From NCBI GenBank assembly GCA_003144275.1, contig NJBF01000065.1, forward strand, positions 1 to 13,229: a stretch of DNA of 13,229 bases, written 5' to 3'. The notes beneath the pieces are model-generated. The model saw only the letters and a program-made list of their open reading frames with translations. It searched no databases and had not been told where the DNA came from. Within the stretch, counting starts at the first letter, position 1; every line of letters begins with the position of its first letter. Below are positions 830 to 5,965 of this stretch, in pieces. This stretch comes from Candidatus Heimdallarchaeota archaeon B3_Heim. GTDB lineage: Archaea; Asgardarchaeota; Heimdallarchaeia; Hodarchaeales; Hodarchaeaceae. The translations under genes and the position numbers were made by a program.

Positions 830-999
830 ATTTCGCCCCTTAGCCAACTTCTTACTACTTACTCTATTCTCACGCAGATCAACGCATAGAATCAGCAAGA
901 GATAATTTCTTACAGATACTACCTTCCTCCAAGCAACCTTATTCAATTTTTATTAGTCATATATAAAATCCTTTAGGCATACATTCTTAATGGATTTTT

Positions 1000-1007
1000 T
1001 AGTTTTG
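1000..1007 (+). promoter_or_regulatory. Possible Bacteroidota -7 promoter box
   Basis: TAGTTTTG matches TAnnTTTG, 12 nt before the ATG at 1020. No convincing -33 TTTG at the expected spacing. Confidence 0.3.
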
Positions 1008-1019
1008 TATCTTTAGGCC

Positions 1020-2576
1020 ATGGAAAAATTCCTCAAAAAGAGGTTATTGTTTATTCTTATTGATCTTCTCATAGTAGGTCTTTCTTACTTTGTTGTTGTT
1101 TGGATCAAACCCGGAGAGAATGTTCCATATCTTTCGCGGTATTTCTTTTCCTTTGTCGTTTTTTTATGTATCTGGATCTTTGTTTCTTCCTTCTTTAAAA
1201 AATTTCAATACAAGGAAGATTACGATTTTAAAACGATTATACTTCCTATACTTATCAGCAATTTCATCATCCTGGGCAGTGTTTCTCTCCTGATGTTTCT
1301 TCTGCGTATCTCTTTCTATTCCCGGACTATTGTTTTCGGGACCATTCTCCTGGCCACCTTTCTGGAATTTTTCTTTACCAACATGTATTACCTGTTTAAA
1401 GCCGCAGTCGTATACCAGAATCCTCCCGATCACGAATATGCTGCCCTGAAAATATTACAGGAAAACGGTAAAATAAACAGAAAGAATGGGTCAATCCTGC
1501 AAACACAAACTGGTGATAAGTCAAATTTTTCTGAATCCATTCAACAAACCATCATCAAAGAATGCGGAGAGGACGGTTTTTCGTTCATCAGGGAGAATAA
1601 TTGCTGCGATTCGGACGAAACCCTGGTTGTTTCAACAACAACAGCCTTTAACATCAAAACCCAACCGTTAAACAAATTCAAAGGCGTAGTTAATTTAAGG
1701 CGCATTAACGATATCCGGTATCTCAACCACTTTTTTGAAGCCGTCAACACAAAACTTCCCAAAGAAGGGACATTTGTCGGATGCGTTGAAACCAAAAACC
1801 TGCGTAAGAAAAGAATTTTTAAAAAATATCCGTTCCTTCTTAATTATTTTTTCTACTATTTACTCGATTTCCCTGTAAAAAGGGTTTTGCCAAAATTTAA
1901 AATGACACAAGGTTTGTACCATTTTCTAACCCGGGGACAAAACCGGGTAATAACCCGGGCTGAGACCCTGGGAAGATTGATTTCCTGCGGGTTTGAGGTG
2001 ATCAATGAAGATTATATCGGCAGCCTTTATTACTTTGCGGTGAAAAAAATAAAAGAGCCTGTCTATGATCTTCATCCAACTTATGGTTTGTTTGTGCGAT
2101 TGAAAAGGATCGGGAGGAATGGTAAGCCTATTAAAGTAACAAAATTACGGACCATGCACCCTTATGCTGAATACCTGCAGGATTACATGTACAACATGCA
2201 TAACCTGAAAGATGGCGGGAAATTCGATCATGATTTCAGGGTTTCCACCCTGGGCAGGATCATGCGGAAACTGTTTATCGATGAGCTTCCTATGCTGTAT
2301 GACTGGATTAAAAGAGATATGAAGCTTGTTGGTGTACGTCCTATTAGTGAGTATTATTTTAAACTCTATGATAAAGAAGTCCGTGAAAAACGTATCAAAT
2401 ATAAACCCGGACTTATCCCACCTTTTTATAATGACCTGCCTAAAACGCTTGAGGAAATACAGGCCTCAGAAATGAAATACCTTGAGGCTTATGAAAAACG
2501 TCCTTTCCGTACTGACTGGAAATATTTCTGGCGTGCCTTATACAACATTATTTTCAAAAATGCCAGAAGCCAGTAA
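1020..2576 (+). CDS. Sugar transferase (phosphoglycosyl transferase, Bac_transf family) with N-terminal membrane domain
   Basis: About 4 hydrophobic segments at the N terminus. C-terminal RIGRNGKPIKVTKLRTM...DFRVSTLGRIMRKLFIDELPML...MKLVGVRP...KPGL contains the catalytic DELP motif. Confidence 0.88.
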   Translation: MEKFLKKRLLFILIDLLIVGLSYFVVVWIKPGENVPYLSRYFFSFVVFLCIWIFVSSFFKKFQYKEDYDFKTIILPILISNFIILGSVSLLMFLLRISFYSRTIVFGTILLATFLEFFFTNMYYLFKAAVVYQNPPDHEYAALKILQENGKINRKNGSILQTQTGDKSNFSESIQQTIIKECGEDGFSFIRENNCCDSDETLVVSTTTAFNIKTQPLNKFKGVVNLRRINDIRYLNHFFEAVNTKLPKEGTFVGCVETKNLRKKRIFKKYPFLLNYFFYYLLDFPVKRVLPKFKMTQGLYHFLTRGQNRVITRAETLGRLISCGFEVINEDYIGSLYYFAVKKIKEPVYDLHPTYGLFVRLKRIGRNGKPIKVTKLRTMHPYAEYLQDYMYNMHNLKDGGKFDHDFRVSTLGRIMRKLFIDELPMLYDWIKRDMKLVGVRPISEYYFKLYDKEVREKRIKYKPGLIPPFYNDLPKTLEEIQASEMKYLEAYEKRPFRTDWKYFWRALYNIIFKNARSQ

Positions 2577-2577
2577 A

Positions 2578-2640
2578 GAGTGGCAGTAGCAGTAGCAGTT
2601 GTGGTGGCCGTGACAGTAGCAGCTGCAGTGGCACTTGCAG
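2578..2640 (+). repeat. Degenerate hexamer tandem array (about 10 units, CAGTRG)
   Basis: GAGTGG CAGTAG CAGTAG CAGTTG TGGTGG CCGTGA CAGTAG CAGCTG CAGTGG CACTTG CAG, starting 2 nt after the stop codon at 2576. Confidence 0.85.
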
Positions 2641-2682
2641 GAAAAATCAAGAAATTTCTTATTTTTATTTAAAAAAGAAAAA

Positions 2683-2736
2683 ATGTCACAAGGTTTTAAA
2701 GATTTAAAAGTTTATAAATTGGCATATGAAGCAGCC
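2683..2736 (+). pseudogene. 5' remnant (18 codons) of a four-helix-bundle protein gene, in frame with the downstream CDS
   Basis: MSQGFKDLKVYKLAYEAA(M) matches the N-terminal F-x-D-L-x-V-Y/W-x-x-A helix of TIGR02436-type proteins; compare HKELDVWKES of the copy at 5858. It follows an A-rich start context (AAAAAAGAAAAA-ATG). Confidence 0.78.
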
Positions 2737-4323
2737 ATGAAAAAAACTTTGATCCTCTTTGTATTAATTATTAATCTAAATAACAGTTTTCCTCAACAAG
2801 TTTATCACCATATTTCAAACTCTACAATCTATACTTTCCTTGATGAACTTTCTAATCAACAATTAATTAGCCTTAATTCTGCTGTTAAACCTTATTCCAG
2901 AACCTTTATTGCTGATAAACTTCAGGAAGTATCTGACCAGAAAGAAAATCTAAACCAACGACAAATAAAAAAACTTGAATTTTACCTGAAGGATTTTAAT
3001 AAGGAGCTCCTGCCGGATAAAAATTTCAATAAACGCCTGGATCTGTTTTACTATAAAGATTCTCTATTTACTTTCTCAATTAATCTGATCGGAGGACTTC
3101 AATACTGGACGAATAAAAACGGTTCGGTTTACCATCGCTGGAATGGAGCGGAAGCATTTGCTTATGTCGGAAAGCATTGGGGTTTTTATGCCAGTCTGAG
3201 GGATAATCATGAGAATGAGATACTTTCAGAAGATCATTTTCTGAACCAACGGATGGGAGGGAATTATAAAGCAAAATACGATTACAGTGAGATGAGAGGA
3301 GGGGTTACGTATTCCTGGAAATGGGGAAGTCTGGGTTTAATTAAGGATCACTTTGCCTGGGGAAACAACCATAACGGTTCAAACATTTTTTCCGGCAGAA
3401 CACCTTCCTTTGTTACGTTCAATCTGAACCTAAAACCGGTAAAGTGGCTGGATTTTCATTATGTCCATGGAAGGATCATTTCTGAAGTGATCGATAGTAC
3501 ACGGTCTTATTACCTTGTTAACAGTTATGGATTAAACTACCGGGAAGTCTTTTTTCATAAATTCCTTGCAGCCAATTTTTTTACCATTACCCCTGTTAAA
3601 CGGTTAAACATTTCATTTGGGAATTCCATTGTTTACAGCGATCTGGGTGTTTATCCGGCATACCTGATCCCCATTTTCTTCTACAAATCCGTTGATCATA
3701 CTGTAAACTCAGGGATCGACAATCAAAATTCCCAGATGTTTTTTGATATCAGCTCCCGGCAAATAAAAAACCTGCATCTGTATGCCGGCTTGTTCATCGA
3801 TGAAATTGCTATAGGACGAATGTTCAAACCGGATGAACATTCCAATTTCTACAGTGCAAAGGCAGGCTTTACATTGAGTAATTATCCGCTTCAAAATTTA
3901 TCAATTACAGCAGAATACACCCGTACCAACCCGCTGACTTACCGGCATTATGTGCCAACCATCACTTTTGAATCAAACCGGTTTAACCTTGGGCATTATT
4001 TAATGGATAACGCTAAAGAATTCTTCTTTGAAATTGAATCCAGGCCTATCAGGGGTCTAAACATCCATCTTTCATACACTCATGCGCAAAAAGGACCTGA
4101 TTACACCCTTCCGGGCGCAGACAGACTTGGATTACCCTTCATGGAAATGGTAGAATGGGAAAATAAGACCCTGGCTTTAAAAGCCAGGTATGAGGCAATT
4201 AATGACGGGTTTGTTTTTGCCGAATTCCTGTTTAGGGACATTACCGGGGTAGAAAGTTACACTCCGGAATTCTGGTATGGAAGGACGAGTACGGTTTCGG
4301 TGGGAGTAAATTTTGGATTTTAA
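2737..4323 (+). CDS. Capsule assembly Wzi-like outer-membrane beta-barrel protein
   Basis: Signal-peptide-like MKKTLILFVLIINLNNSFPQ, aromatic-rich alternating beta strands, C-terminal VGVNFGF (terminal Phe) and polysaccharide-locus context. The Wzi assignment is by resemblance. Translation could also begin at 2683. Confidence 0.65.
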   Translation: MKKTLILFVLIINLNNSFPQQVYHHISNSTIYTFLDELSNQQLISLNSAVKPYSRTFIADKLQEVSDQKENLNQRQIKKLEFYLKDFNKELLPDKNFNKRLDLFYYKDSLFTFSINLIGGLQYWTNKNGSVYHRWNGAEAFAYVGKHWGFYASLRDNHENEILSEDHFLNQRMGGNYKAKYDYSEMRGGVTYSWKWGSLGLIKDHFAWGNNHNGSNIFSGRTPSFVTFNLNLKPVKWLDFHYVHGRIISEVIDSTRSYYLVNSYGLNYREVFFHKFLAANFFTITPVKRLNISFGNSIVYSDLGVYPAYLIPIFFYKSVDHTVNSGIDNQNSQMFFDISSRQIKNLHLYAGLFIDEIAIGRMFKPDEHSNFYSAKAGFTLSNYPLQNLSITAEYTRTNPLTYRHYVPTITFESNRFNLGHYLMDNAKEFFFEIESRPIRGLNIHLSYTHAQKGPDYTLPGADRLGLPFMEMVEWENKTLALKARYEAINDGFVFAEFLFRDITGVESYTPEFWYGRTSTVSVGVNFGF

Positions 4324-4353
4324 TTGTTAAACAGGGAGTATAAAATATAAACA

Positions 4354-4390
4354 GTCATTGCGATTCCGACAAAGTCGGAAGAAGCAATCT
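4354..4390. repeat. REP-like element of the GTCATTGCGA...GAAGCAATCT type between convergent genes; may double as a terminator
   Basis: Outer ATTGC/GCAAT (4357-4361/4384-4388) enclose TTCCGAC-AAA-GTCGGAA (4364-4380). Confidence 0.75.
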
Positions 4391-5400
4391 TATTGTTTTT
4401 CTTTAAGGAAAAATTCTGCCGTTTCCTGAATTGTATCAATCAAAAGTCTAAACTCCATCCCTATTATATCCTTAATCTTCTGATTTGAAAAATAAACCTT
4501 CCTATGCCCTGATCTGGCTGACTCTCTGGTAACCAAAGCTTGTTTATTCAAAATTTTACTTCTCATCCAATCCAGTCGCCAGGCTATACTTGTAAGGAAG
4601 GGGGTCGCATGAATATTTGGTGGTTTTTTATTAAAGGCATTTGCAATCATTCCAAAAACCTCTTTGTAGGAAAGATTTTCAGAAGAAATGATATATCGTT
4701 CTCCAATTATTTCACCTTCCATAAGTTCAATCATGGCTTTTACTACATCCCTGACATCCACAAAACCAGTCACCCCTAATGTATAAAATTTCAATCCATC
4801 CCAAACAGACTTCATTATACGCCCGCTGCTCCTGTTCCAGTCGCCGGGTCCCAATACCACGGAAGGGTTTACAATCACTGCTTTCAATCCTTCTTCCATT
4901 CCCCGCCAGACCTCCATTTCGGATTTAAACTTGCTTACCGAATACCACGAATGGGATTTGGAAGGTTTCCAAATGGTGCTTTCATCCACAAGCCCGGCGC
5001 CTGATTTGTCACCTAATGCAGCTGTTGAACTGACAAAACAAAGTTTTTCTATCTTCGTTCCAAGGCAGGCATTTACAACATTCGCCGTTCCCATGATATT
5101 TGTTTCGAGCATTTTTTTTCTGTCCCTTGTTTCAAATGAAACCATTGCAGCACAGTGATAGACCTTTGAAACACCCTGCATAGCGTCTTCCAGGAAGGTT
5201 ATGTCTGACACATCTCCTTCAACCCATTCGATTTTTGAGAATAATTCTTCAGGATTATCGGAATAATAACGGAATGTTTTGAGTACGTTTTCAGTTTTAC
5301 TGGTTGGGCGTTTTAAAGCTCTGACCTTTTGCTCCTTTTTAACTAATTCATAGAGCAAATGTGAGCCAACCAAGCCTGTTCCTCCGGTTATTAGGATCAT
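4390..5400 (-). CDS. NAD-dependent epimerase/dehydratase (extended SDR family)
   Basis: Rossmann motif ILITGGTGLVGSHL, YHCAAMVSF, FVSSTAALG, catalytic YSVSK (YxxxK), IVNPSVVLG. Confidence 0.92.
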   Translation of the reverse strand: MILITGGTGLVGSHLLYELVKKEQKVRALKRPTSKTENVLKTFRYYSDNPEELFSKIEWVEGDVSDITFLEDAMQGVSKVYHCAAMVSFETRDRKKMLETNIMGTANVVNACLGTKIEKLCFVSSTAALGDKSGAGLVDESTIWKPSKSHSWYSVSKFKSEMEVWRGMEEGLKAVIVNPSVVLGPGDWNRSSGRIMKSVWDGLKFYTLGVTGFVDVRDVVKAMIELMEGEIIGERYIISSENLSYKEVFGMIANAFNKKPPNIHATPFLTSIAWRLDWMRSKILNKQALVTRESARSGHRKVYFSNQKIKDIIGMEFRLLIDTIQETAEFFLKEKQ

Positions 5401-5502
5401 GGTGAATGGTGAAAAGTGAAAGATAATAATTTTTTATAGAACGCTGATTACACATATAAAGCGGATAAAAACAGATAGATTTGTGAAACGTCAAAGGTGA
5501 AT
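5401..5502 (+). repeat. Two heptamer sub-arrays (RGTGAAA type) downstream of the four-helix-bundle gene
   Basis: GGTGAAT GGTGAAA AGTGAAA (5401-5421) directly abuts the epimerase start codon. TGTGAAA CGTCAAA GGTGAAT (5482-5502) lies 5 nt from the four-helix-bundle stop. Confidence 0.8.
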
Positions 5503-5507
5503 AGAAA

Positions 5508-5858
5508 TTACTTTTTGTCCTTTAAATATTTTATCAATCCGAGCAATAATCTTCTAACCTTATTTATTTTTTCGATGATAGAATCAACTTCTTTAATAAA
5601 TTCTAATTCTACTGCAATAATCATTTGTGTTTCAACTTCCTATAGCGATCCAAGAGCTATGTAAAGGAAATGATTAAATTCTTTATCCGATCTCCTTGCG
5701 GCTCCCTCAGAAATGTTTGAAGGAACTGAAACTGCTGCTCTTTTTATTTGGCTTGTCAATCCAAATATTTCGTCTTTAGAAAAATCTCTAGTTTTGGCAT
5801 AAATCATTTTTACTAAGTTAATTGATTCTTTCCAAACATCTAATTCTTTATGATCCAT
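5508..5858 (-). pseudogene. Four-helix-bundle protein (TIGR02436 / 23S rRNA IVP / Avd-like), interrupted by one in-frame TAG
   Basis: MDHKELDVWKES...EIFGLTSQIKRAAVSVPSNISEGAAR...EFNHFLYIALGSL*EVETQMIIAVELEFI...LLLGLIKYLKDKK*. The frame continues past TAG (5640-5642) with family-typical sequence to TAA at 5508-5510, 116 codons in total. Confidence 0.88.
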
Positions 5859-5965
5859 GATAATAAATTTTAATTGGTTAAACTTAAATATGTTTTAAAT
5901 TTCAATATATTCAAATAATTACTCTTTCTGATATCTGTAGTTGAAAAAATTTAATTCAAGGCGCC

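Follow-up and report, generated by a model that had tools for sequence, protein, structure and literature searches.

The stretch of DNA analysed here, referred to as the window, comprises 13,229 nt of contig NJBF01000065.1 (assembly GCA_003144275.1, Candidatus Heimdallarchaeota archaeon B3_Heim). On its plus strand, a sugar transferase gene at positions 1020 to 2576 (518 aa; PF02397 match at 3.2e-20) forms the left flank of a slot. To the right lies a gene of 528 aa (2737 to 4323, plus strand) for a Wzi-like outer-membrane beta-barrel protein, identified by its own signal peptide, its homologues and its AlphaFold2 (AF2) fold and called the porin below. The transferase gene, which is syntenic in loci L005, L018, L021, L022 and L023, terminates with TAA. 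Three bases beyond the stop codon begins a degenerate array of GCAGTR hexamers (2579 to 2640, plus strand), detected by Tandem Repeats Finder with periods of 6, 12 and 24 and a score of 68. Homologues of this array, 46 to 76 nt long, are present in all of the alleles compared. The array constitutes a left arm, and no inverted partner of it is left between positions 2400 and 4500 of the window. Its length is polymorphic: at 2613/2614, the Logan contigs of runs X1, X5 and X6 and loci L015, L016 and L017 carry 12 additional bases (two hexamers) relative to the window and to run X8.

The array is followed by an A/T-rich leader (2641 to 2682, plus strand), identical to the leader of a four-helix-bundle (4HB) gene in L005 and showing one to two differences from the corresponding sequences in L017, L025 and L024. 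Its last 12 bases, immediately preceding ATG 2683, are eleven A residues and one G. Positions 2683 to 2736 (plus strand) contain the first 18 codons, MSQGFKDLKVYKLAYEAA, of a gene of the PF05635/TIGR02436 type, and match L005:3092-3145 base for base. This stump, whose sequence is present in a single copy in the genome, runs directly into the porin gene: one frame is open from TTG 2635 to the stop codon at 4323, reading MSQGFKDLKVYKLAYEAA and then MKKTLILF from ATG 2737 onwards. The succession of array, A-rich start context, ATG 2683 peptide and ATG 2737 in one open frame, described in an earlier note on this DNA, is confirmed at these positions. A scan of the 2300-2900 interval for sigma-70 promoters and terminators yielded nothing beyond what shuffled sequences gave.

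Homologues of the porin number more than 3000 in a large protein collection and are mostly of about 528 aa. The 120 best, mostly 525 to 545 aa long, begin with MKK or MRK, a hydrophobic stretch and Q(E/T)VYHH. None of these approximately 120 best homologues has the 18-residue peptide as its native N-terminus, each beginning instead with its own signal peptide, which removes the possibility, raised in the earlier note against its own interpretation, that the extension is native to the porin. By sequence, the window porin has no match in Pfam, and none to PF14052 at E-values up to 1. With the PF14052 model, P0003 reaches 14.5 bits, below the cut-off of 30.1; a few porin homologues carry precomputed PF14052 matches, and a sequence profile of 32 homologues found no PDB chain. 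The AF2 model (pLDDT 81.7) predicts helices at residues 29 to 91, followed by about 18 to 20 strands. In a Foldseek comparison, the model is closest to Wzi (2YNK; E 7e-13, TM 0.59/0.69), with barrels of the OccD/AlgE type nearly as good by E-value. Wzi is the outer-membrane lectin of the E. coli group 1 capsule (PDB 2YNK, Pfam PF14052). In Wzi as in the modelled porin, a helical domain at the N-terminus precedes a large beta-barrel, and both proteins are encoded in a polysaccharide-synthesis neighbourhood; they differ in that the sequence similarity of the window porin lies below the family threshold. As far as the model goes, the term Wzi-like holds for the fold only and does not denote family membership by sequence. 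Gene neighbourhood alone (sugar transferase, epimerase, NusG-like gene) points towards a putative role in the binding or anchoring of capsular polysaccharide.

Intact relatives and the missing 393 bp

A search for porin orthologues in 60 related genomes, at an E-value of 1e-10, found none, and the comparison was therefore drawn from metagenome and MAG contigs. An intact cassette is present in three close syntenic loci (L005, L017 and L025), where the transferase is followed by the array, the 123-aa 4HB gene, the inverted arm and the porin. In L005 (GCA_019057775.1, contig JAHLWT010000250.1; closest porin at 92% amino-acid identity), the genes follow each other as NusG-like gene, transferase, 123-aa gene, porin and epimerase. 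The small gene is followed by an ACTGCC-type array, reverse-complementary to the left one, and this by the porin ATG. L017 (Ga0114920_10020527) and L025 are closer than L005, their porin DNA being 96% identical to that of the window and their arrays of the same type. As expected of an array-flanked cassette resembling an intervening sequence (IVS), the complementary arms of L017 form a long-range stem around the gene; MFE and centroid folds agree on this pairing (z -2.35). The window has the left arm only, and its stretch folds no better than shuffled sequences (z 0.0). The full cassette that the earlier note proposed to look for in relatives is thus found, with the whole gene and the inverted arm, in all three loci.

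The 123-aa product of L005 (P0123) begins with MSQGFKDLKVYKLAYEAAMKIFEISK, that is, with the same 18 residues as the stump followed by Met-Lys. It is a bona fide member of PF05635 (5.8e-34, 117 bits; cut-off 33.8) and belongs to TIGR02436 as well (1.7e-29, 102.3 bits; cut-off 24); the PF05635 match covers residues 6 to 111, stump included. Position 19 is occupied by Met in 105 of the 120 best near homologues listed, in agreement with the claim that family members place a Met or another hydrophobic residue right after the 18-mer. The stump translations themselves (36 and 52 residues) have no NCBIfam HMM match at E-values up to 10, because 18 residues are too short to be informative. Assignment of the peptide by HMM search, as suggested in the earlier note, is thus achieved indirectly: the peptide is identical to the N-terminus of a PF05635/TIGR02436 member, but the fragment alone gives no match. 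Judging from its base identity with L005:3092-3152, which shows its descent, the stump is a gene remnant and not a family member. Between L005 and L017, the small gene has 3 non-synonymous and 7 synonymous differences in 369 nt (binomial p 0.002), a pattern indicating that it is translated and under purifying selection in the intact alleles.

When aligned by blastn, L005 and the window share two blocks, L005 1347-3152 corresponding to window 922-2743 and L005 3539-6148 to window 2737-5334. The two blocks overlap by 7 nt, ATGAAAA (window 2737 to 2743, plus strand). This heptamer occurs twice in L005 (at 3146 and 3539) and twice in L017 (at 227 and 620), with a spacing of 393 nt in both, and L025 has the same intact layout and spacing as L017. 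One copy provides codons 19 and 20 of the small gene, the other codons 1 and 2 of the porin gene. As is typical of microhomology deletions, a direct repeat lies at both ends of the segment in the undeleted alleles and a single copy is kept at the junction. Window positions 2637 to 2743 (leader, 18 codons and ATGAAAA) equal L005 at every base, the L005 counterpart being the leader and the first 61 bases of the intact gene. The 100% identity over these 107 nt (flanks, 92-93%) was considered as a striking feature and dismissed, since several nearby 100-nt segments are 97-98% identical.

Altogether, these data argue that a 393-bp deletion from one ATGAAAA to the other, in a complete cassette, produced the in-frame 18-codon stump on the porin gene, a reading to which we assign a probability of about 95%. 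The ancestral slot between the transferase and porin genes would have contained the array, the A-rich leader, the 123-codon 4HB gene and the inverted arm. Deletion between the two ATGAAAA copies would then have taken out 393 bp and kept one copy, the ends being joined, presumably, by a slipped-strand or microhomology-mediated route. Since both repeats start with an in-frame ATG, the stump is necessarily in frame with the porin, and the kept frame does not represent a separate coincidence. The earlier note had postulated a Met-to-Met deletion joining the 4HB gene to the next gene, with loss of about 100 codons and of the inverted array arm. The exact 393-bp gap relative to L005 and L017 bears this out, the missing segment consisting of 105 codons and the stop codon of the small gene, plus a 75-bp spacer that includes the right arm. 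The window has lost the 4HB protein, and the long-range hairpin around the 4HB gene can no longer form there.

The event is a textbook microhomology deletion with in-frame fusion and an instance of ordinary genome erosion. Like other microhomology-mediated in-frame fusions, it involves a short repeat (here 7 nt) at both ends, of which one copy is kept, and gives a chimeric frame. It differs from them in that both copies are start-type codons (ATG-Lys), that a second start codon and leader now precede an otherwise intact secreted protein, and that the identical join is present on two haplotypes. Annotation conceals the remnant within a single CDS, as had been anticipated: the public record of the window gives a 562-aa protein from TTG 2635, and the L016 record (MQY79453.1) and an ENA call give 546 aa. 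These records wrongly give the porin 34 or 18 extra N-terminal residues, derived from the other gene or its leader.

Among described systems, the ancestral unit comes closest to ORF-bearing IVS, such as that in the 23S rRNA of Coxiella burnetii, whose S23p/four-helix-bundle ORF is reported to be under reductive evolution (Warrier et al. 2016, PMC4990558). Here too, the ancestral unit (L005, L017) is a PF05635 ORF enclosed by arms capable of long-range pairing. In contrast to the Coxiella element, the present cassette is found between protein-coding genes of a polysaccharide locus rather than in rRNA, its arms are hexamer arrays, and the window lacks the ORF and one arm. The window provides a cleanly resolved case of decay in array-flanked four-helix-bundle cassettes.

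The 528-codon porin frame is intact in all deletion carriers. These include two further public contigs in which the join is identical to that of the window, L015 (from a MAG labelled uncultured Rikenellaceae) and L016. The lineage of the window porin shows no rate acceleration, and its omega versus L005 is 0.18; due to near-identity around the junction and to the clustering of differences, neither measure is specific to the period after the deletion in the haplotype shared by the window, L015 and L016. Over its first 1055 nt, the porin gene is identical between the window and L015/L016, and all 39 differences fall at nt 1056-1564, suggestive of a recombination tract. A divergence of 2.5% separates the window and L015 porins; it was considered as a measure of the time since the deletion and rejected on account of this distribution. 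In window coordinates, the differences from L015/L016 cluster at 3792-4300; those that separate run X1 from the window cluster in the transferase gene, at 1865-2384. Such clustering indicates frequent recombination in the polysaccharide locus.

The second haplotype, the start codon and the direction of change

The 90% identity cluster of the porin includes two 546-aa records: P0125, from the L016 contig with the window-type stump, and P0129, from L024. The latter begins with MSHGFKDLKIYKLAYEAA-MKKALILLL and has the same ATG-to-ATG join. Either the deletion is recurrent, or an old deletion was later recombined. We lean slightly towards recurrence. The 70-nt array of L024 is 100% identical, and the first 198 nt of its porin gene 99% identical, to those of L021, a non-fused allele from the same study, while on both sides of the join the window agrees with the intact L017 and L025; moreover, two independent deletions need no extra events. 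Credited with a little less than an even chance is the alternative that L024 carries the same old deletion and that its flanks were replaced by recombination up to the borders of homology. In favour of it, the locus is a pronounced mosaic: identity, taken per 200 nt, ranges from 88% to 100%, and differences are clustered. Exactly at the porin ATG, and within the leader, homology with non-deleted donors runs out, and conversion tracts would naturally stop at these points. The three unique changes in the L024 stump, including V10I at a position where 117 of the 120 listed homologues have Val, would fit long drift. Among the 120 best homologues listed, no intact gene has the L024-type N-terminus (MSHGFKDLKIYK), an absence that is uninformative. 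Since the cassette has about 20 other direct repeats of 7-9 nt, equally able to mediate deletions, recurrence would suggest that selection retains those joins after which the porin can still be translated, although a claim to that effect would need more than two events.

The fused frame places the porin gene directly behind the leader and start codon of the cassette. To score the two ATGs, we used a start-site matrix derived from 367 unambiguous starts of the window's own genome. The matrix shows Shine-Dalgarno-like enrichment of G at -12 to -8 (G 0.33-0.45, versus a background of 0.18), which is absent from both ATG 2683 and ATG 2737. ATG 2683 has a total score of 0.09, and of 0.59 when only upstream positions are counted; the respective values for ATG 2737 are 2.71 and -0.25. 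With scores about equal, the matrix favours neither ATG, and the "stronger start context" that the earlier note attributed to the stump is not borne out. As a separate observation, contigs related to the window are labelled Bacteroidota or Rikenellaceae, despite the Shine-Dalgarno-like G enrichment in the window's genome; in that group, Shine-Dalgarno pairing is generally held to play a small part.

Since the small gene is under purifying selection in intact alleles, its leader and ATG constitute a working translation start. Both are unchanged in the window, and the frame from 2683 to 2737 is free of stop codons; any ribosome that initiates at 2683 must therefore read into the porin. We infer that at least part of the porin is probably made with an 18-residue N-terminal extension preceding the signal peptide. 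Conversely, the deletion may be real and the stump untranslated, with ribosomes starting at ATG 2737 and the stump merely serving as a new 5' leader. The higher total score of ATG 2737 would fit this arrangement, as would its upstream context, which scores better (-0.25) than the native one in L005 (-3.14). An extension before the signal peptide might, in addition, impair export and so favour an internal start. Against exclusive use of ATG 2737 stand the activity of the same leader and ATG in intact alleles and the uninterrupted frame. On balance, we give this alternative a substantial chance, clearly short of even odds. A further reading, which we deem improbable, is that the ATG-to-ATG join is more than a tolerated scar and was repeatedly selected: out of many conceivable microhomology deletions of the cassette, it would have survived at least twice because it gives the porin the leader and start of the cassette with the frame kept, through a functional extension or a changed level of expression.

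That the deletion is the derived state was assessed with a porin-gene tree rooted on the distant, cassette-free L006 (68% identity). Bootstrap support for a clade of the three deletion alleles (window, L015, L016) is 91; support is weak (56) for the rooting and for the relative placement of L005 and L017. A 7-nt direct repeat around a segment missing from some alleles is also the signature of transposon insertion, and the stump could, in principle, be ancestral and the 393 bp of the relatives an insert with a 7-bp target duplication. Besides being at odds with the grouping of the deletion carriers in a clade of their own, weak root notwithstanding, this reading is untenable, because the insert would have had to complete a single PF05635 domain whose match (residues 6-111) includes the stump, and to bring along the inverted partner of a pre-existing array; we consider it very unlikely. 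Least credible of all is a chimeric join made at the short repeat during assembly: although the window belongs to a metagenome-assembled genome in 103 contigs, the Logan contigs of runs X1, X5, X6 and X8, from four studies of subsurface and sediment metagenomes, cross 2737-2743 with well over 100 nt on each side and no insertion, joint or loose end at these positions, and the join is independently present in L015, L016 and the 546-aa protein records. The misassembly at 2736/2737 that the earlier note had named as a potential refutation is thereby set aside, and the deletion reading stands.

Other states of the slot and neighbouring slots

Among porin alleles within 90% identity, the stump is found in the window, L015, L016 and L024, and the intact 4HB cassette in L005, L017 and L025. 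In L018 (2505-3000), L019 and L020, the slot is taken up by a PDDEXK_3 (PF13366) gene of 125 aa, flanked by inverted arms of the CGCAAAG type. In L022 (1787-2282) and L023, the PDDEXK_3 gene is frameshifted into pieces of 60 and 81 aa. Alleles cease to be homologous 3 nt past the stop codon of the transferase gene, and homology returns precisely with the porin ATG. A further state is represented by L021 (2858-3000), where sequence from the left array into the leader persists until about 12 nt short of the former start; a 41-nt stretch with a short remnant of the right arm and no ORF comes next. The L021 slot has undergone a different deletion, and shows that cargo-less arrays can be deletion relics. 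On this comparison of alleles, the slot has a high turnover. The window likewise shows that, at gene boundaries, at least some solitary arrays of short period are what remains after deletion of a cargo gene. The alleles, from near-identical loci, form a natural series (intact 4HB, stump, arms only, PDDEXK_3, frameshifted PDDEXK_3) that could be used to study the effects of the cassette on expression of its neighbours.

The next slot, between the porin and epimerase genes, measures 66 bp in the window. In L021 (4590-5300), an intact minus-strand 4HB gene of 122 aa is found there, adjoined by N-interrupted CTGGATG/CTGGTTG heptamer arrays of more than 300 nt. In L022 (3993-4286) and L023, the same slot is occupied by a 97-aa GIY-YIG gene. 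The window has a second cassette at 5480-5940, with a 4HB ORF that carries a TAG stop (5507-5858, minus strand). At the corresponding site, L017 (oriented 3271-3393) and L025 keep the heptamer arms without the 4HB ORF, in about 120 nt as compared to about 520 nt in the window. This arrangement may represent another loss of cargo, or its absence, between retained arms.
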